Origin: a virus
Taxonomy: Duplodnaviria > Caudoviricetes
Virus record (IMG/VR): IMGVR_UViG_3300035501_000578
Span: 47,956 to 111,955 of that record
DNA length: 64,000 nt
Strand: one strand, 5' to 3'
The notes below the pieces were generated by a model. It did no database searches. It was not told the DNA's origin and saw only the letters and a list, made by a program, of their open reading frames with translations. Below are positions 3,297 through 26,242 of the stretch, piece by piece (the stretch's first letter is position 1; each line of letters starts with the position of its first letter). The position numbers were made by a program, and so were the translations under genes.

Positions 3297-4460
3297 CTTT
3301 AATGTTTAACTTATATTATTCCCCAATATTTAAAAATTTCCAATGATAGCCACCACATGTCTTGCGTTCACCACGGCATACTTTTAATATACCAGAACTG
3401 TCTAAGGATAAATCTTTACTTGCTTCAGTGGCATCATTAAATTGTTTATTTAATTCCAAACAAAACACAGGAGTAGTATTCCTTCTAAATGAACGTATAC
3501 CTTTACTATGTTCACTCATCTTTTTCTTTGATTCTTCGGTATGATGTCTTCCATACATACCATTGTTTTTACCAATTATTTTTTCTTTTATTTCTGGATT
3601 TGTCCATTGATTTAATGCATCAATTCGTCTGACTTCTTTTAAATTTGAATGGCAATAAGATTCTTTAATAGAATTACTAAGCTTTTTTCTTGACTCTTTG
3701 GATAGTGTATTTTTTATAAATTGACCACCTGATTTTAAATTATAACCGCAATCTCTATCCAAAGTATTATATAGTTCTATATAATAAATTTCCCTCTGAT
3801 CAAGTTCGTTTATTTCGCAAGTGTCTAATATATAAAAACTAAAACTATCTTCACCATATTTATTCCAAGCTTTTTGTAAATAATCATTATCATGATTTCC
3901 GTGATTTAATTCACCTTTATGTCTTCTCCATCTATCATAAATATTTTTAGATTGACCAATATATTTTTTGTTTGTTACGGTATTTTCAATGCAATAAATT
4001 CCAGAAATTATTTCATTTTGCATTTACTCATCTCATTTCTGTTATTATTTTGGGAAATAATTTTATAGGGTCGCTACGCCCTGTTGAGTTTAATTGTCCA
4101 GATTAAACTCCACTTACTTTCATAAGTAGAACAGACTATATCATCATCCAATAAAGGATGTGTACCATTTCCATTTAAGGGGGTTTCACCCACTCACTTG
4201 AGCCGTACTTCTATTGCAGATTTCTCTGCCGATGGAATAGTCGTTGAGCCTTACCTTTCGGTCTTGGTTGCTGATTGCCCATTAAAAAAGAACAGGGGAT
4301 TTAACCTCGTTCTCATACAAATAATTTTTTCTGCTTTCGCCACATTCACGTTTATACCATTTAAGGTATTGCGTTGTAGTTTATTTGCCTTTAGGGTTTT
4401 CCAGCAGTTAGATACATATTTTTTCATACAGCTTACGCTATACGGATACTGTAAGAGTCA
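3297..4460 (-). ncRNA. Group I self-splicing intron (1164 nt) in major capsid gene
   Basis: P (AACUGCUGGAAAACCC), Q (GCAAUCAGCAACC), R (CUCAACGACUA) and S (GAUGAUAUAGUCUG) elements; P1 exon GAUAU/IGS GUAUC with U.G; P10 UCUUACA/UGUAAGA; terminal G. Confidence 0.92.
3316..4023 (-). CDS. Intron-encoded GIY-YIG homing endonuclease with NUMOD3/NUMOD1 domains
   Basis: GIYCIEN...KYIGQS motif, YNLKSGG, GRHHTEESKKKMSE (NUMOD3), C-terminal HTH; located 3' of the S element. Confidence 0.92.
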   Translation of the reverse strand: MQNEIISGIYCIENTVTNKKYIGQSKNIYDRWRRHKGELNHGNHDNDYLQKAWNKYGEDSFSFYILDTCEINELDQREIYYIELYNTLDRDCGYNLKSGGQFIKNTLSKESRKKLSNSIKESYCHSNLKEVRRIDALNQWTNPEIKEKIIGKNNGMYGRHHTEESKKKMSEHSKGIRSFRRNTTPVFCLELNKQFNDATEASKDLSLDSSGILKVCRGERKTCGGYHWKFLNIGE

Positions 4461-13591: not shown

Positions 13592-13632
13592 TTCACCTTC
13601 TTTCCTCTTAATCTATATAAAAAGAGAAGTAG

Positions 13633-14649
13633 TTAAGCTGTTTTAACCACTTCTCCAAATTCAGGTATATATTCTTTCCATAAATAATTTTTGTGATATG
13701 CACGATTGCCATCACAGACTTTATTTATACTATAAATATCATAATAATCATGATTAGCCAAATCTTCCGATTTCCATGTTCGTATATAATTCATATTCAT
13801 ATCGTATTGATTTATATAATATTTTCCGCAACTTCTCCTACTATGTAAAAGATATTCTTGTGAAAAATCATTCTCTTTTTCAAATTTATATCTCCAAATA
13901 AATCCATCATATGAATTTCGTTCATGCCTACAACATCTTGTAATTGAAGAAAATTTTTTGTAACTATTTTTTAAATCTAAATAATCCCATTCTTTTATTA
14001 ATCTGCCATATAAGTCATATTGTAGGATTGGAATATTAAAAAATCTACTATACTTTAACATATATTGTTCAACATCAAAATTTTCTATTTTATCAAATTC
14101 GTCTTTATAAAACCAAATATATCCATTTGCTTGATGCGTAATATGTCTACAACATTGTAATATGGATCTTGCTCTTATATTATTATATGTTCTTTGAACA
14201 TGAGTTGCACTTCTCCATATACGAACTACATTTCCATTAAAATCAATTTGAACAACCTTTTCAGGATTTTTAACTTTTGACATATATTCTTTTTGTTCTT
14301 CAGTTAAAATAGTTCCTCTTGATCCACCTCCACCATCAGATAAATTATATCCAAATTCAGGATTTTTTGAATCATACTTTGAAATCCAATATATTTCTCT
14401 GTCATCCAAATCCTTTTCTTCACATAATTCTAATATTGAAAATTCAAAATTTTCTTTACCATACTGATTCCAAGCACCTTGTAGATGTCTATTTGAATGA
14501 ATTTGCTTGTTTAATTCATACTTATGATGCCACCAACGTTGTCTTATATCTGTGCTTTGACCTACATATACTTTGCCATTAATAACATTTGTTATGATAT
14601 AAATGCCACATACATTTTCATCTAATTTAGTCCATAATTTTGCACCCAT
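13633..14649 (-). CDS. Free-standing GIY-YIG homing endonuclease with NUMOD1 repeats
   Basis: GIYIITN...VYVGQS, GYNLSDGG, three repeats of Q(Y/I)D..G....W...CC...GYIW. Confidence 0.9.
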   Translation of the reverse strand: MGAKLWTKLDENVCGIYIITNVINGKVYVGQSTDIRQRWWHHKYELNKQIHSNRHLQGAWNQYGKENFEFSILELCEEKDLDDREIYWISKYDSKNPEFGYNLSDGGGGSRGTILTEEQKEYMSKVKNPEKVVQIDFNGNVVRIWRSATHVQRTYNNIRARSILQCCRHITHQANGYIWFYKDEFDKIENFDVEQYMLKYSRFFNIPILQYDLYGRLIKEWDYLDLKNSYKKFSSITRCCRHERNSYDGFIWRYKFEKENDFSQEYLLHSRRSCGKYYINQYDMNMNYIRTWKSEDLANHDYYDIYSINKVCDGNRAYHKNYLWKEYIPEFGEVVKTA

Positions 14650-14700
14650 ATTTCATCATTTCTCCAATCTCCCCATATCAAAATATTTACATCAAAAGAG

Positions 14701-14769
14701 AAGAGAAGGGCGACTGGATATGGAGTACAGTCATTTATAGAGTTTGCAAATCTCTATTATCCTTCTCTT
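14701..14769 (-). promoter_or_regulatory. Three-way-junction RNA leader (copy 1) upstream of GIY-YIG gene
   Basis: P1 AAGAGAAGG/CCTTCTCTT, P2 ATAGAG/CTCTAT, P3 TGACTG/CAGTCG; loop CTCCATATC complementary to GATATGGGG near the RBS; covaries with copy at 20535. Confidence 0.6.
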
Positions 14770-14772
14770 GAT

Positions 14773-14851
14773 CGCCAACCATCAGACTCGAACTGACAAA
14801 AGCCCATCTACCACAACCGACAAGCCGTTTTCCCATTTAAACTACATTGGT
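14773..14851 (-). tRNA. Degenerate tRNA-like element (enlarged anticodon arm, GTG in loop)
   Basis: D arm GTTT/AAAC, T arm GTCAG-TTCGAGT-CTGAT; acceptor stem has 2 mismatches. Confidence 0.5.
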
Positions 14852-14956
14852 ACACTATATATTTCTCTATTTCAATTTCATTCCAAACAAAAAAGAGCCG
14901 TATAAACGACTCTTTACCGATTGATCGCAAAATCAACCACAACTGTATTTAATATT

Positions 14957-15130
14957 TTATTGCGGACTTACCTGAACCATCAATTCCTTAGAATCCCTAT
15001 CAATAGAAACAGAAAAGTCATGCGAATCCATGAACTCTACAATTTTTCTGTTTTCTTCTGTAACAGGAGTCCTTTTTAATTCTTTTCTTGCAACAAACGG
15101 TAATCTAGGCTTTAAAACATATCCATTCAT
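14957..15130 (-). CDS. Hypothetical protein
   Basis: MNGYVLKPRLP... start with GGAGG RBS inside tracked ORF. Confidence 0.5.
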   Translation of the reverse strand: MNGYVLKPRLPFVARKELKRTPVTEENRKIVEFMDSHDFSVSIDRDSKELMVQVSPQ

Positions 15131-15152
15131 ACAATTCCTCCAAAAATGATTA

Positions 15153-15398
15153 TTAAAACATACCGCCAAATATAGAATTAAAAGCATCCGTAAAATCAGA
15201 TTTCCCCTCTTCTAAAACATCAATTAATTTATGCTCACCATATAAATTTCTCAATACTTTGAAACTATCAGCTTTTGCTTGCCATAAAGTTTTTTCGTAT
15301 TCATCGTCTCCATATATACCAACTGGATTTCTACGTTTCCATGAAGAATCTAAAGCAGCTTTGTATTGTATAAGTTTAGAATATTTACGTTGATTCAT
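15153..15398 (-). CDS. Hypothetical protein
   Basis: 81-aa ORF with AAGGA RBS. Confidence 0.55.
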   Translation of the reverse strand: MNQRKYSKLIQYKAALDSSWKRRNPVGIYGDDEYEKTLWQAKADSFKVLRNLYGEHKLIDVLEEGKSDFTDAFNSIFGGMF

Positions 15399-15454
15399 AT
15401 TGTTTATCCTTTCAATCTTTATATATATTAAATTTTCTAAATAGAACTACACAT

Positions 15455-15670
15455 TTATTTATTCTTATCTTTTCTACGTTTAATATCATCAATAATACAA
15501 GAGACAATACCGCCAACCACAATAAACGGCATTATCAAAGATTTATATATTATTTGATACCACTTGTCATCATTGTCTAAAACAATTAATGCCCAAGGGA
15601 AACAGAATATACCATCTATACATAGATATATAACTAAAAATTTAAGAATGTAATACCAAATACTAAACAC
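15455..15670 (-). CDS. Small membrane protein
   Basis: Two hydrophobic segments and a basic C-terminus. Confidence 0.5.
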   Translation of the reverse strand: MFSIWYYILKFLVIYLCIDGIFCFPWALIVLDNDDKWYQIIYKSLIMPFIVVGGIVSCIIDDIKRRKDKNK

Positions 15671-15690
15671 CTCTTTTGTTTATTAATTAG

Positions 15691-15763
15691 TGGAAGCGTT
15701 GGGACTTGAACCCAATACGATAGCCATACATTGATACTTGACTTCGTTACCTAATTCACTCCC
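15691..15763 (-). tRNA. tRNA-like element lacking a D stem
   Basis: Acceptor GGGAGTG/CGCTTCC, T arm TTGGG-TTCAAGT-CCCAA, 3' ACTA; long irregular hairpin replaces the anticodon arm. Confidence 0.55.
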
Positions 15764-15782
15764 ATGATAGAAGAGGATGACA

Positions 15783-15923
15783 TCAAATTTCTTCTAAACA
15801 ACACATTACAGCATCCCAATCAGTGTCATAATATTTACCACATTCACTGCAAATATAATGAATTCCATCATCATCACAAATATATTCAGATGCTACATAT
15901 AATTCTTCTTCATTTTCAATCAT
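15783..15923 (-). CDS. Small acidic Zn-ribbon protein
   Basis: YICSECGKYY...AVMCC. Confidence 0.45.
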   Translation of the reverse strand: MIENEEELYVASEYICDDDGIHYICSECGKYYDTDWDAVMCCLEEI

Positions 15924-15972
15924 ATTTTTTATTCTTTCTGAAACAAAATTTTTATCCAATTTGTGCGTTGCG

Positions 15973-16042
15973 CAAGCCATATCAGGATTCGAACCTGTAT
16001 TTCCGATTATGTCGGCGTTCTTTCCGTTGACACTAATGACAC
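15973..16042 (-). tRNA. Degenerate tRNA-like element (5-nt anticodon loop CATAA)
   Basis: T arm CAGG-TTCGAAT-CCTG, CCGA-CATAA-TCGG arm, partial acceptor GTCAT/ATGGC. Confidence 0.5.
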
Positions 16043-16370
16043 GTACAAATTGGATAACAGCACAAAGTACTAACTAACTACATCTAGGATTTCCGGTTAA
16101 TCCACTTCGAGTTAGTTATTATGCTGTGTTCATACTTTAAAAATCAGTAACAGAGATAATTAATCGCTATTACTTCCAAAACTTATATGATGAGTTTTCA
16201 ATCGTTATCTTAAAAAACAGCTATAATTATAGTTATCTGTTTATTGCCGACTCTGACGGTTACTTTATTACAAATAATAATTGTAGTGTGAATTTCACTA
16301 TGGCTATGCCGCCACAAATCAAGTTTGTCATAATGTGGATTATGCCATCCAATATATTTTAGTTACCCAT

Positions 16371-16520
16371 GTGAACTGCTCACGAGACTAAAGCCTCGGA
16401 GCTTCTTGTTTCTGCCTCAACGGTTATTGTCACACCTTATAGGTAGTTTTCCCATCAAGTCCACAAGCGTATAAGTTCGGCTAGTTCCTAACCTACTATT
16501 TATGTGCCTTAGACTATACT
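16371..16520 (-). ncRNA. Putative TnpB omegaRNA (reRNA) scaffold
   Basis: Non-coding right end between tnpB stop and the RE hairpin; established architecture of IS605 elements. Confidence 0.6.
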
Positions 16521-17603
16521 TATAAGCCTAAACCCTTCATTTTTTATATTTATTGCTGAATTGTAATCTCTATCTATTGTAAGACCACAACACTCACAAT
16601 GATATATTTTGTCTGATAACTCCATAGGGTGTCTGTTACCACAACTTGAGCATAACTGAGTAGATGGAAACCACTTATCTACTTTTACAAGCTGTTTACC
16701 TCTGCCTGCAAGTTTATAATCTAACATTGTTAGAAACATACCATTTCCGTTATCCATTGTGGCTTTACCGTTGCCAAAACCTTTATTAGACATAGCTTTC
16801 ATATCAAGAGTTTCTACGCATACAATATCGTACTGATTGGCTATCTCAGTAGACTTTTTGTGCAAAAAATCTTTTCTCTGGTTTGATATATGAGTATGTA
16901 TCTTAGATATATTTTTCTGTTGTTTATAATAATTATTGCTGCCTATCTTTTTATGTCTTAATTTTCTTTGTGCTTTAGCAAGTCCGTCCTGAGACGTCCT
17001 GTAATATTTAGGGTTTCCACATACATTACCCTCGCTGTCAGCATACAGTCCGTCTGACTTATAATCTAAGCCGATACACTGAGTTCCTGTTGATTTTACA
17101 ATCACGGTATCGTATTCAAAAAGAACCGATACATAATATTTACCGTCACTGCTTTGTGATATGGTTGCAGATTTAAGTACCCAGTCTGTATCTGGTTTTC
17201 TGTGTATCTTAGCTTTTACAACACCAAGTTTAGGTAGTTTTATGCCTTTGTCATAAATGGTAACTGAACCCTTCTGGTTATTGGTAGTATAGGCTTTCTT
17301 ACTGTGTTTAGCCGACTTATACTTTGGGAAACCTGTCTTTGGGTTAGTGAAGAAGTTTTTGTATGCTGTCTGTAAGTATATCTGAACATTTGCAAGAGCC
17401 AAAGAGTCTACTTCCTTTAAGTATGTATATTCTTTCTTATACTGAGCAGGTGTAGTCTGTAACATCTGTTTGTTTATCTGATAGTAAGCTATTTTATCAG
17501 CAAGCATTAAGTTCCATATCTTACGGCAACAGCCAAATGTCTTAGCAAATAAGATTTTCTGTTCTTCTGTCGGATATAATCTGTATTTGATTGCTTTATT
17601 CAT
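16509..17603 (-). CDS. tnpB: TnpB RNA-guided endonuclease
   Basis: MNKAIKYRLYPT start with its own GGAGGT RBS; RuvC D (IGLDY), E (VETLD), D (DRDYNSAINI); CxxC/CxCC zinc finger. Confidence 0.93.
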   Translation of the reverse strand: MNKAIKYRLYPTEEQKILFAKTFGCCRKIWNLMLADKIAYYQINKQMLQTTPAQYKKEYTYLKEVDSLALANVQIYLQTAYKNFFTNPKTGFPKYKSAKHSKKAYTTNNQKGSVTIYDKGIKLPKLGVVKAKIHRKPDTDWVLKSATISQSSDGKYYVSVLFEYDTVIVKSTGTQCIGLDYKSDGLYADSEGNVCGNPKYYRTSQDGLAKAQRKLRHKKIGSNNYYKQQKNISKIHTHISNQRKDFLHKKSTEIANQYDIVCVETLDMKAMSNKGFGNGKATMDNGNGMFLTMLDYKLAGRGKQLVKVDKWFPSTQLCSSCGNRHPMELSDKIYHCECCGLTIDRDYNSAINIKNEGFRLISIV

Positions 17604-18013
17604 AACTACACCTCCTTGATTTTCTATATACTCTTTGAGAGTCTTTTCACTAACATTACCTACTGAACAAATAAAATAACCGTCTGTCCAGAAGGTATGC
17701 TCTTTCCAAAAATAATTACTAAGATATGCTGAATATTTTTGCCATATATGATAAGTTGTATAGCTTTTCATAGTCCTAACAAAATCTGATAAGTTTATGT
17801 TTAGTCTGGTTTCTATCATATAATGAATATGGTCTTTGTCTATTTCCATATACTTTATAGAAACATTATGTTTAGAACATATCTCTCTTGATAATCTTTT
17901 TATATCATTAGCAATATACTGATTTATCAATAGCTTTTTCTGTATTTACATACAAATATAAGATGATACTGTAACAAATATTTATTATGACTTGCAGATT
18001 TCCAATTACCCAT
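17604..18013 (-). pseudogene. tnpA: IS200 TnpA (Y1 HUH transposase), frameshifted near N-terminus and fused in frame to tnpB
   Basis: MGNWKSASHNKYLLQYHLIFVCKYRK then AGA AAA AGC TAT TGA; the other frame carries DHIH, FWTDGYF, EYIENQ and runs into tnpB without a stop. Confidence 0.8.
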
Positions 18014-18129
18014 AAGCATTACCTCCTATGAATAATAGAAATGTCTGAGTTTATTACAACACAATCTGAGTTTTTATGTGCCGATTCATTCCACGAACCT
18101 AAAGGTTCGGGGAGTTCTTGGCACTATGC

Positions 18130-18350
18130 TTAAATAATCTTCCAGTCTTCTTACAAGAATCAAGAAATTCATCAGAAACCAAATGACTATTGTATTCTCT
18201 AGGATTGATTGGGGATGATAGAATATTTTTGTTGTGTTTTCTATATCTATCCATAGTTTTTTTAAAATTTTCATTGTTCTGGTTTAGAAATTTATCTGCT
18301 TCTTGTGAGCTGAGAATGAAAGTATGATTTATTTCTATAGTTTGTTTCAT
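18130..18350 (-). CDS. Hypothetical protein, C-terminus interrupted by the IS
   Basis: Removing the IS restores ...GRLFK-WVTKIYWMA stop using sequence below 16371. Confidence 0.5.
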
Positions 18351-18472
18351 AATATCAACTTCTTTTTTATTCTTTTCTTTGATTGATAAAATTTGGGATT
18401 AAGATTGTTTTAATTAGACATATATGGCGTGATAAGTGGGAGATAGAAGAGTAAGTGGACAGATGTGGCGAG

Positions 18473-19426
18473 TTAGATAATTATTGAATCTTTGATTTTT
18501 CTAACCTTAGTCGTGTCTGTTTTAAGATAGAACTTTTTCGTGACATCAGTACCGGAATGATTCAACATAGTTGAAATATCCTCAAGACTGACTCCCTCAG
18601 ATTTCATGAGGTTACTATAAGTGTGGCGAAAATCATGACAGTGAAGTGTAGGCTCACCAATCATCTTACCAATCTTTTTACACCAATCATTCAATGTACC
18701 ATTAGCAATAGGTTTCTCTGGAGTAACATATGGACTTAAAAATACCCAACCATAATCATCTATATTGTTTTCTTTTCTATATTCAACAAGTCTCTCTAAA
18801 TATCCTTTTGCTTCTTGTGAAAAACTTAATTCTACAATTTTCCCTTCTTTTTCTAATACACCAGAAAATATACGTTCTTCCCAGTCAATTTGTTCCCATC
18901 TTAAATGTGCAATTGCATTTACTCTTCCCATAGTAGTAAGAGATACAAATGCATATGCTTGAAATTGAATATCTCCATATTCTTCCAACTTTTCACGCAT
19001 AAGTTGTACTTCTTCTTTTGTAAGATATGTTTGAACAACAATAGCTTGTCCCTGTTTCGGACGCTCAATAAATTCAACCGGAGATTCTTTTATTAATTTC
19101 TTTTTCCGTAAAAATTTATAAAAAGCAGAAATAGAAGACATTACACGCTTTTGTCTATTTACATTATTTCCTTGCTGCTTTCTCCAGTAGTAATATTCGA
19201 TTATGTCATCGTCTGTCGCTTCTAATACACTTAAATTAAATTGATTATCATGCATAAAGATAAACCACTGCATTAAATCTGTATTATATCCATAGACTGT
19301 GTTATGTGATAAATCACGAATTGACATATCTATTTGATATTTCTGAAACAGTTTTAATGTCTCAGGATTTATCTGTTTTGCCTTTTCTTCGTCATATAAA
19401 CAAATTCTTTTACTTCGTTCAGCCAT
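18473..19426 (-). CDS. Tyrosine recombinase (XerC/D-like)
   Basis: SAM-like N-domain, TMGRV (R), HDFRH (HxxR), LNHS, catalytic Y in KKFY. Confidence 0.9.
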   Translation of the reverse strand: MAERSKRICLYDEEKAKQINPETLKLFQKYQIDMSIRDLSHNTVYGYNTDLMQWFIFMHDNQFNLSVLEATDDDIIEYYYWRKQQGNNVNRQKRVMSSISAFYKFLRKKKLIKESPVEFIERPKQGQAIVVQTYLTKEEVQLMREKLEEYGDIQFQAYAFVSLTTMGRVNAIAHLRWEQIDWEERIFSGVLEKEGKIVELSFSQEAKGYLERLVEYRKENNIDDYGWVFLSPYVTPEKPIANGTLNDWCKKIGKMIGEPTLHCHDFRHTYSNLMKSEGVSLEDISTMLNHSGTDVTKKFYLKTDTTKVRKIKDSIII

Positions 19427-19473
19427 CTATTTCCTCCTTTCACTCAAATAAAAAAGAAACAGTAATAGTAATT

Positions 19474-20520
19474 CTAAAATGCTTCTTGTTTTCTCATTTC
19501 TATATATTCATAAATTTGTTCTGGTGTATTATTTCTTTCTCCATAAATTGAATGAAAACTGTTTGGATAATTTATAAGATGACATGGTTCACATAGAGTA
19601 GTCCCATTTGTCACTTCGTATCTTAAATTCTCATACTCTGCAAAATTATATAAATGATGAGCATTTAAATTACCACCACGTTTACCACAACATTGGCAAG
19701 TATAATTATCTCTTTTAAAGACTTTCCGTTGCCATTCTTTATAATAAGTATTATTTCTAGCCATATGTTGTTCTGTAGTAGAAAATCCATCAAAATCTTC
19801 AACTGAAATTCCACGCTGCCTACAAGAAGATTTAATTCTATTTTCCATTGTAGATTGCGACAATCTCACTTTTTCATATCCATCTTTTTCGTTATAGTAA
19901 ATAGATAATAATTCACTTCTGTTTGGTATTTGATATCCGTAAGAACGAATAACATTGATAACAGTATTTCCAGTTAAACCATACATATCTCCGATTTCTT
20001 CAGAAGTCTTATGTTGCTTAAAATACAAATCTTCAATAACATCTTTTGTTAATTTCTCTGTTTTTGATTTATATTTATTATTTAATTGAAAATATGAAAT
20101 CCACTCTCTAAGCGTTCTTTGGTTAATACCGCATTCTTTTGCAATATCATTAGCATCTCTGCCTTTTACAATATATTCACTATATAGCCAATCTTTGTTT
20201 CTGTATGGGATTTCAACGAATATTAAATTTCCATTCTCATCTCTTGTTTTCTTTTTATGAGTAAGACATTCTGGACAGCAATATGTATTTCCACGTAAAT
20301 GTAGATAATCTTTCCAAATAATTTGTTTCAATTTTCTACAATAATCACATTGTATCGTGACTTCTTGTACGGAACCATTACTTAAATCATTAACATCAAT
20401 TTCAAATTCATCACCATAATTAGTAAATATATATCCACACTCAATATAATGCTTTTTATTCGCTGGAAACCATTTTACTTTTAGTTTTTTTGTAATTAAC
20501 ATTTTCACAACTTTCTTCAC
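19474..20520 (-). CDS. HNH homing endonuclease with Zn-ribbon and HTH domains
   Basis: VFKRDNYTCQCCG...LNAHH...NGTTLCEPCH. Confidence 0.88.
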   Translation of the reverse strand: MKKVVKMLITKKLKVKWFPANKKHYIECGYIFTNYGDEFEIDVNDLSNGSVQEVTIQCDYCRKLKQIIWKDYLHLRGNTYCCPECLTHKKKTRDENGNLIFVEIPYRNKDWLYSEYIVKGRDANDIAKECGINQRTLREWISYFQLNNKYKSKTEKLTKDVIEDLYFKQHKTSEEIGDMYGLTGNTVINVIRSYGYQIPNRSELLSIYYNEKDGYEKVRLSQSTMENRIKSSCRQRGISVEDFDGFSTTEQHMARNNTYYKEWQRKVFKRDNYTCQCCGKRGGNLNAHHLYNFAEYENLRYEVTNGTTLCEPCHLINYPNSFHSIYGERNNTPEQIYEYIEMRKQEAF

Positions 20521-20534
20521 ACTTAAAATATAAA

Positions 20535-20601
20535 GAGAGGGCGATAGGAAAGTGTGTGAATACTATCATTCAATGAGTTCATGACGCTCATTTATCCTCT
20601 C
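20535..20601 (-). promoter_or_regulatory. Three-way-junction RNA leader (copy 2) upstream of HNH gene
   Basis: P1 GAGAGG/CCTCTC, P2 AATGAG/CTCATT, P3 TGATAG/CTATCG; loop TTCACAC complementary to GTGTGAA in the translation-start region. Confidence 0.6.
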
Positions 20602-20604
20602 AAT

Positions 20605-20693
20605 AAAAAGAAGACTAGCCTTTGACAACTAATCTTCCTAAAAAATATGTTTAAAACAATCAAAAAAGCCTATGACCTTTGACAGTCATAGAC
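20605..20693 (-). terminator. Two tandem intrinsic terminators with identical TGTCAAAG loops
   Basis: GTCTATGAC-TGTCAAAG-GTCATAGGC-T6 and GAAGATTAGT-TGTCAAAG-GCTAGTCTTC-T5. Confidence 0.7.
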
Positions 20694-20710
20694 CCTACAT
20701 ATATAATTCC

Positions 20711-25399: not shown

Positions 25400-26149
25400 T
25401 CATTTGTGATCTTTATATTTAAAAATATAGCCCTTATGATATTTTATTTTTCCCTTACAGCACTTAATTACTGAAGAACCATCAAAACCTTCGTTTTCTG
25501 TTTGGGTTGCACTGTCCCATGTTTTTACATATTCACCATTTAAAGTGTATTGTAAAATTTTTCGAGGTTGTGTATTTTGGTTTAAATAATCATTAATATT
25601 AAATCCTTTGTTATAATCATCAACACTAATCCATATAAAATTTTTATATGTTTTTCTACTTTTATTAACACACGTCCAAATTACAGATTGTCCTATATTT
25701 AACTTTTTAGATGCTTCCCTTGCACCATATTGCCATGTATTCACAATATTACCATCGAAATCTATCTGATAAATAGGAATTGATTTGTGCGCTTCTCTAA
25801 ATATTTGACGTCCTTCTTCTGAAAGATTTTTAACACCTTCTCCACCAATCGTGAGATTATAACCTTGTTTATTATCAGTATAAATATATGAGTTATAATA
25901 ACTTATGTAATATATTTCTTTATTATCAAGTTCATTTTCTAAACATTCTTCAACTATATAAAACTTAAAATTATTTTCTCCATATTTATTCCATGCATTT
26001 TGTAGATACTTATTATAATGAGAATTATTATTTAGTTTGAATTTATGACTATACCATCTTGTATATATATCCTTACTTTGACCTATATATTTTTTACTAT
26101 TTACTAAATTTTCAATGCAATAAATTCCACATATTTTTTCTTTCGCCAT
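25400..26149 (-). CDS. Free-standing GIY-YIG homing endonuclease with NUMOD1 repeats
   Basis: GIYCIEN...KYIGQS, GYNLTIGG. Confidence 0.9.
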   Translation of the reverse strand: MAKEKICGIYCIENLVNSKKYIGQSKDIYTRWYSHKFKLNNNSHYNKYLQNAWNKYGENNFKFYIVEECLENELDNKEIYYISYYNSYIYTDNKQGYNLTIGGEGVKNLSEEGRQIFREAHKSIPIYQIDFDGNIVNTWQYGAREASKKLNIGQSVIWTCVNKSRKTYKNFIWISVDDYNKGFNINDYLNQNTQPRKILQYTLNGEYVKTWDSATQTENEGFDGSSVIKCCKGKIKYHKGYIFKYKDHK

Positions 26150-26242
26150 TAATCATCCCTTCTTTATTTTCAATAAAAGAAGAGATGGATTTAATGCTGT
26201 CTCACGACATGTACCATCTCTAAAATAGAATTTTATTAAATT

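Follow-up and report, generated by a model that had tools for sequence, protein, structure and literature searches.

The DNA analysed here, referred to throughout as the window, is the last 64 kb (64,000 nucleotides (nt)) of a 112-kb IMG/VR virus record, IMGVR_UViG_3300035501_000578, which is 67% complete. The large terminase shares ~48% identity with the terminases of SPbeta and phi3T and 86% identity with one from a Lachnospiraceae metagenome-assembled genome (MAG), identities that mark the source as an SPbeta-like phage of gut Firmicutes. Two homing-endonuclease genes (HEGs) within the window are each preceded by a structured leader RNA, a three-way junction (3WJ) that is the subject of this work, and every gene around both leaders is carried on the minus strand. 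The first HEG (13633-14649, minus strand) encodes a 338-aa GIY-YIG homing endonuclease with a match to Pfam PF01541 at 3e-13 and to several PHROG homing-endonuclease families, and its cassette is followed by a 352-aa open reading frame (ORF) and the large terminase gene. The second (19474-20502, minus strand) encodes a 342-aa HNH homing endonuclease with helix-turn-helix (HTH) domains, assigned by Pfam HNH and HTH matches and by PHROG HNH families. A preliminary description of the two leaders, made from the letters of the window, had the HNH gene start at GTG 20520; this was not borne out, as alignment with homologues at 56-94% identity fixes the start codon at ATG 20502.

Leader copy 1, assigned to type III, occupies 14701-14769 on the minus strand, 52 nt upstream of the GIY-YIG gene (14649-13633); R3, the family model described below, assigns it 59.9 bits. 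It consists of helix P1 (AAGAGAAGG/CCUUCUCUU, 14769-14761 with 14709-14701), helix P2 (14757-14737, with loop AUUUGCAAA) and helix P3 (14733-14711, with loop UACUCCAUAUC at 14727-14717), connected by the junction strands J12 (AUA), J23 (AAA) and J31 (C). Folded alone, this copy has the 3WJ as both its minimum-energy and its centroid structure (-20.1 kcal/mol, z -2.8), and the same structure is supported by covariation in the family. The P3 loop is complementary to three sites between the junction and the gene, all on the minus strand. Site 1, GAUAUGGGG at 14671-14679, would form 9 bp with the loop including one G.U pair, with a duplex energy of -12.7 kcal/mol. Site 2, UGGAG at 14662-14666, is the Shine-Dalgarno (SD) sequence located 12 nt before the AUG, and was found by complementarity search to match CUCCA of the P3 loop. 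A third complementary site, AUAUGGG at 14645-14651, lies over the start codon itself and is paired with the loop in the nested fold of the whole leader.

Leader copy 2, assigned to type IV, lies at 20535-20601 on the minus strand, 33 nt upstream of the HNH gene, and scores 57.4 bits with R3. Its helices are P1 (GAGAGG/CCUCUC, 20601-20596 with 20540-20535), P2 (20592-20572, with loop CGUCAUGAA) and P3 (20568-20542, with a 15-nt loop at 20562-20548), and its junction strands are AUA (J12), GAA (J23) and C (J31). This copy also folds alone, the 3WJ being the minimum-energy and centroid structure at -15.1 kcal/mol with a z of -1.65. Target site 1, AAGUGUGAA (20516-20524, minus strand), is complementary to the P3 loop with a duplex energy of -9.1 kcal/mol, and target site 2, GAAAGU-UGUGAA (20504-20515, minus strand), is matched by UUCACA-C-ACUUUC of the loop over 12 bp with one bulge and ends 2 nt before the AUG, as identified by complementarity and in the nested fold.

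The two copies are 82% identical, and the preliminary description was right to regard them as the same leader in front of both nuclease genes, with stems that differ and are compensated: two double changes are found in P2 and two in P3, plus a compensated one-pair indel in P1. The loop pairings that it reported, CUCCAUAUC:GAUAUGGGG at 14679-14671 (one G.U) and UUCACAC:GUGUGAA at 20522-20516, are likewise correct, and they are the distal sites only, further sites lying nearer the start codon in both copies. The junction residues, which had been called invariant, are so between the two window copies and vary across the wider family.

A first model, R1, constructed from the two window copies, was too narrow and matched near-identical relatives only, and a strict DNA pattern derived from the same copies hit 107 stretches of IMG/VR, of which 80 were fetched and two, both near-identical relatives, were genuine. 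Homologues of the HNH gene carry diverged versions of the same fold in front of them. MAFFT alignments of these divergent members were wrong in P3 and were replaced by two rounds of model-guided alignment, resulting in model R3. This model matches 24 of 52 viral records related to the window by terminase or HNH gene, with one or two copies in each record at 35-75 bits, and the members are usually located directly 5′ of HEGs. The covariance-model search proposed in the preliminary description has therefore yielded many further covarying instances in related phages, with several unrelated nuclease families encoded downstream. A 3WJ descriptor of our own, used alone, returned as many matches in reversed as in real sequence, and was specific only when combined with the condition of two sites complementary to the loop. 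In cultured-phage records, neither the region nor the two leaders had a real match by megablast or blastn; among bacterial genomes, a search with the terminase gave three MAGs in which no R3 copy was found, though few candidates were scored.

In an alignment of 17 distinct family sequences, 97.4% of cells in the helices pair and double changes are seen in 17 of 19 base pairs. The covariation score of 0.81 compares with 0.09-0.15 for slid partners and was reached by none of 500 shuffles. This alignment was fitted to the model, so that the structure is favoured; even so, free-energy folding of the individual sequences also gives the 3WJ for most members. The helices contain 21 G.U cells and no A.C cell, which assigns the structure to gene-strand RNA and not to DNA. 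What is common to the family is the scaffold, a three-way junction of roughly 65 nt, with junction strands that differ between types: J12 is AUA, ACA, GCA or AG, J23 is AAA, GAA, GAC, UAU or UGUA, and J31 is C or absent. It is well supported that the leader is a conserved, covarying RNA that constitutes a new family and a candidate for Rfam.

Comparison with Rfam 15, including the C4, tRNA, hammerhead, twister and purine riboswitch families, gave no gathering-level match in the window. The cmscan comparison that had been suggested was also run permissively (E up to 10 and 5) on the window leaders and the leaders of L115-L121, and no relevant family was matched. The int-alpA RNA (RF02996) resembles the leader in being a small structured RNA of about 70 nt associated with phages and prophages, but its covariance model has no match at E<=10 in the carriers G000, G002, G003, G011 and G036, and it was absent from the cmscan results as well. 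No prior description of this leader was found in a full-text search of the literature.

Of particular importance to the proposed function of this RNA is the relationship between the P3 loop and the leader downstream of the junction. At least seven P3 loop types, or addresses, can be distinguished, and the two present in the window are mutually orthogonal. Each leader contains two tandem complements of its own P3 loop, beginning 10-24 nt after P1. A few purines, in many cases (R)GAAA, lie between the two, and site 2 is positioned over the SD region 2-12 nt before the AUG. The mean duplex energy of cognate loop and leader pairs is -11.8 kcal/mol compared to -5.9 kcal/mol for non-cognate pairs, and none of 1854 derangements was as good as the cognate arrangement. 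The window copies do not cross-pair, with cross energies of about -4 kcal/mol against about -12 kcal/mol per cognate pair. At the level of sequence, these comparisons show that loop and sites co-evolve as matched pairs, and a chance origin of the observation is excluded by the family-wide covariation together with the test of cognate against non-cognate pairs. A natural experiment is provided by the relative G001 (L154, G001:C1:40100-41700, minus strand), which encodes an HNH gene 94% identical to that of the window and has lost the cognate 3WJ. Its place is taken by a leader of another type (loop UCACCUAC, sites GUAGGUG/GUAGGU) together with a ~60-aa ORF ahead of the HNH gene, and both of the orphaned type IV sites have decayed following the loss of the cognate loop.

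The SD is predicted to pair with a hairpin loop of the 3WJ, 25-60 nt upstream, which corresponds to a pseudoknot topology rather than a simple local hairpin. SD accessibility was computed by nested partition functions, in which the pseudoknot is outside the model. Of 10 representatives, 8 had a lower value with the real leader than with a shuffled one, the decrease being from 0.85 to 0.27 for copy 1 and from 0.65 to 0.35 for copy 2.

The genes found behind the leaders are diverse, comprising several HNH families, two or more GIY-YIG families of which one has NUMOD1, Zn-finger proteins with matches to PHROGs for HNH, homing or intron-encoded nucleases, and a 392-aa HEG-associated protein. The last falls in an Atlas cluster in which some members have an HNH_repeat domain, which is a lead only. 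A leader type shared by a Zn-finger-nuclease cassette and a GIY-YIG cassette shows 98% identity over 151 nt, and a second, shared by an HNH cassette and a 392-aa-protein cassette, shows 87% identity over 134 nt; the coding parts are unrelated in both comparisons. These alignments show leader, sites and start codon moving as one module between unrelated nuclease genes. The proposal that the element is portable across nuclease families accordingly holds, in that the same fold precedes unrelated nuclease genes and the P3 loop co-varies with the initiation region of each gene. Separately, unrelated nucleases behind leaders of types I, III, V and VII begin with AUGGG, encoding Met-Gly (window 14649; L213, L216, L218, L220, L224 and L121), suggesting that the exchanged module may reach into the first codons.

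Comparison with HEG-less sites further defines the extent of the insertion. In relatives lacking the GIY-YIG gene, homology to the window ends exactly at the end of that ORF, and in one such HEG-less relative, G010, the next gene is directly adjoined by a tRNA cluster and a terminator. On the opposite side in the window, an intrinsic terminator of the upstream gene is located at 14892-14915 (minus strand), and the empty-site comparison has the cassette start just after it. The insert in L225 consists of a minihelix, the 3WJ, the sites and the nuclease gene, flanked by a ~30-nt duplication of the junction that contains the terminator tail and the ribosome-binding site (RBS) region of the next gene (L225 ~1407-1436 and 2939-2968), with a window counterpart at 14854-14881 and ~13600-13625. 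The HEG-less junctions and the duplication flanking the L225 insert indicate that the mobile cassette includes the leader. The 'AGAGAAUAAAUAU' box, conserved upstream of many leaders, was considered as a promoter and rejected; it is not enriched in the window and represents the decayed left copy of the duplicated target-site flank.

The interpretation that best accommodates these findings, to which we assign a probability of roughly 0.65, is that free-standing HEG cassettes in SPbeta-like phages of gut Firmicutes carry a portable cis-regulatory RNA in their leaders, which most likely acts as a translational repressor through pairing of its loop with the RBS. Pairing of the P3 loop with its sites would form a pseudoknot with the 3WJ, and in some types a nested alternative helix would also recruit the pyrimidine-rich 3′ strand of P1. 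The RBS would in this way be occluded and translation of the nuclease kept low, which would matter because the transcript must continue through the cassette into essential late genes, namely the 352-aa ORF and then the large terminase gene in the case of copy 1.

Leader structures of this general kind have been described in T-even phages, in which RNA structures that sequester the RBS limit the expression of HEGs, the cases being I-TevI, I-TevII, I-TevIII, segB and Aeh1 mobE (PMC2988022); the T4 precedent invoked in the preliminary description is stated in that source. As in the T-even hairpins, a leader RNA structure is complementary to the SD of a phage homing-endonuclease ORF, and in the proposed repression the nuclease would be poorly translated from transcripts passing through. 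The T-even structures, however, are simple local hairpins that are idiosyncratic to each gene, whereas here a conserved 3WJ presents an anti-RBS loop to two tandem sites, and the leader is common to, and exchanged among, unrelated HEG families. The element is in this respect a new conserved structural scaffold for a known regulatory principle, that of RBS-sequestering HEG leaders. HEGs are among the commonest mobile genes of phages, and their control is known only from the few T-even cases, each with its own hairpin. The leader is by comparison a modular and conserved RNA device with a programmable pair of loop and target; it moves together with the nuclease gene and has been exchanged among nuclease families that are unrelated. 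It suggests how a nuclease cassette may be tolerated upstream of essential late genes. The orthogonal pairs of loop and site are possible natural parts for translational control in Firmicutes, and the element raises questions about two-site pseudoknot repression, orthogonal RNA addresses and a possible kissing-loop dimer.

Several observations weigh against translational repression by loop-RBS pairing. The regulatory outcome is inferred from complementarity alone, and the shuffle p for single loops is modest (0.001-0.1) because the loops are pyrimidine-rich and the leaders purine-rich, so that only the combined and cognate tests are strong. Types II and VI retain SD accessibility in the nested model, from which pseudoknots are excluded. 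Site 1, which is not over the SD, is usually a better match to the loop than site 2, and a single loop cannot occupy both sites simultaneously; as a result, repression may be incomplete, or site 1 may be a decoy that keeps the SD free. In the T-even hairpins, relief comes from a late promoter located within the structure, but no sigma-70-like promoter is present between the 3WJ and the sites, so that relief by a short late transcript in the manner of T4 is unsupported here, as judged against the sigma-70 consensus only. Lastly, the conserved self-complementary loop of P2 is unexplained by a simple cis model.

Every P2 loop contains a self-complementary core of 6-8 nt, five of which are known in the family (UCAUGA, UGAUCA, UUUGCAAA, UAGCUA and, with G.U, GUUAUGAC), and such a core is present in no P3 loop. 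The core is out of register with the symmetry axis of the stem and its pairing is maintained through G.U, which points to RNA rather than DNA. In the kissing loop of the HIV-1 dimerisation initiation site (DIS), a 6-nt self-complementary core is flanked by unpaired bases. The P2 loop has a similar arrangement, with about 2+6+1 nt in a loop of 9-10 nt, in an entirely different context and with a dimer that is predicted only. The self-complementary P2 loop suggests kissing-loop dimerisation, or action in trans like that of the c4 RNA of phages P1 and P7. The c4 antisense RNA (Rfam C4) controls an antirepressor operon and is encoded on the transcript of its own target, from which it is processed to act as a free RNA; its loops are directed against two sites, one of them over the RBS, loop and target co-vary to give distinct specificities, and there is a link to tRNA-like processing. 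The leader is like c4 in that its own transcript contains two sites, one of them at the RBS, to which its loops are complementary and with which they co-vary, but it precedes nucleases instead of an antirepressor operon, has a different fold and has no match to the Rfam C4 model.

A potential parallel to such processing is found at the 5′ edge of the inserted cassette, where a tRNA-like element or minihelix precedes many copies. Immediately 5′ of copy 1, at 14776-14850 (minus strand), lies a tRNA-like element with a T-arm-like hairpin, GUCAG-UUCGAGU-CUGAU, that is not called as a tRNA: ARAGORN found no tRNA in the window, and the Rfam tRNA model matched neither the 3WJ nor this element. The relatives L222, L223, L225-L227 and L235-L239 have a ~45-nt minihelix just 5′ of the 3WJ, with an 8-bp outer stem that includes one compensatory change from A-U to G-C, and with a T-loop-like segment, UUCGAUU. 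This feature may be a processing signal for RNase P or RNase Z, or the relic of a tRNA target.

On this basis, an antisense-like action in trans or as a dimer is the alternative that survives best, as a tentative possibility: leaders would kiss through their P2 loops, or the 3WJ would be excised as a small RNA, and the P3 loop would silence the sites of another molecule. The restriction of self-complementary cores to P2 loops, with a geometry and a G.U tolerance that point to RNA, is consistent with this, as are the potential RNase P or RNase Z site before many copies and the occurrence of different address types in one genome without cross-pairing; two sites per mRNA and orthogonal addresses would make sense if the RNA acted in this way. 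Against it, the shuffle p for each P2 loop is only 0.05-0.1, processing and dimers are conjectural, kinetics favour pairing in cis, and both copy 2 and the G001 copy are without an upstream tRNA-like element. Action in trans is also compatible with translational repression by loop-RBS pairing, since it concerns the same pairing. A more elaborate form, slightly more speculative still, is an address-coded, self-limiting circuit made of RNA only, in which leaders would dimerise through P2 loops, each P3 loop would lock the twin sites of its partner and translation would fall as transcript accumulates; orthogonal addresses would allow several HEGs to coexist in one phage without cross-talk, and the tRNA-like element would be the processing signal that frees the module.

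Somewhat less likely again is a bistable switch or timer, in which a 3WJ with its loop on site 1 would leave the SD free (ON), and pairing of the P1 3′ strand and P3 loop across both sites would close it (OFF), with co-transcriptional folding, temperature or a phage factor selecting the state. The possibility of two states arises because the minimum-energy folds of the full leader in most types keep P2 and, instead of P1 and P3, form a long helix that spans the initiation region. The energies are close, at about -20 kcal/mol for the 3WJ plus -12.7 kcal/mol for the loop-site 1 duplex in copy 1 versus -32.9 kcal/mol for the alternative fold, and the 5′ strand of P1 resembles the site region by eye. 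However, types II and VI are not predicted to form the alternative helix, which pairs a pyrimidine tract with a purine tract and so arises easily by composition, and its trigger is hypothetical.

A small-molecule riboswitch or self-cleaving ribozyme is very improbable. The preliminary description had called the element riboswitch-like or protein-bound, and its size of about 65 nt, its location in a 5′ untranslated region (UTR) and its 3WJ do resemble the purine and other riboswitch classes. A riboswitch is nonetheless unlikely because the residues of J12, J23 and J31 differ between leader types, with no conserved ligand pocket visible; furthermore, Rfam comparison at E up to 10 gave no matching family, a hammerhead-type core is absent, and the downstream genes are selfish nucleases rather than metabolic genes. 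Nothing points to a bound protein. Least likely of all is a DNA-level element, that is, a nuclease recognition, recombination or homing site seen as inverted repeats: its position at the edge of a mobile cassette and the recombination of leader modules between cassettes would suit such a site, but the excess of G.U over A.C cells (21 to 0), the freely varying stems with pairing kept, the presence of the same element before nucleases of unrelated DNA specificity and its absence from the HEG-less site all argue against it.

Three narrower readings of the leader were also considered and rejected. A leader peptide encoded in the repeats is suggested by small ORFs in some types, but these have inconsistent frames and stops. 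GGA sites of the CsrA type are absent from types II and IV, and pairing of the P2 loop with the 5′ leader works in type I only.

Upstream of copy 2, at 20608-20696 (minus strand), lie two intrinsic terminators in tandem that share the loop UGUCAAAGG, and copy 2 begins 6 nt after the second. The plus strand of the first terminator reads as a perfect sigma-70 consensus promoter, TTGACA-17-TATAAT (12/12), at 20679-20707, and that of the second, at 20622-20651, scores 10/12; both promoter-like sites point antisense to the upstream gene.

The record contains four clear nuclease genes, two with the canonical leader and a third with a reduced variant of it. This variant, at 26181-26221 (minus strand), precedes a GIY-YIG gene (25400-26149) and has a P1 of AGAGAUGG/CCAUCUCU around a single GNRA hairpin. 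It is not detected by model R3; the same U-rich linker follows it, and both the SD and the start codon are matched by the complement in an unpaired stretch, CAUUAA-AUCC. A further GIY-YIG gene (3316-4023, minus strand) is without a 3WJ and has a tandem AUGAG-AUGAG right before its AUG, with two unrelated hairpins upstream. Between the two nuclease cassettes, a single ORF at 16509-17930 (minus strand) encodes an IS200-type Y1 transposase fused to TnpB (OrfB_IS605 and zinc-ribbon), an IS200/IS605-type TnpA-TnpB fusion, and adjoins a gene for a tyrosine integrase at 18473-19426 (minus strand).

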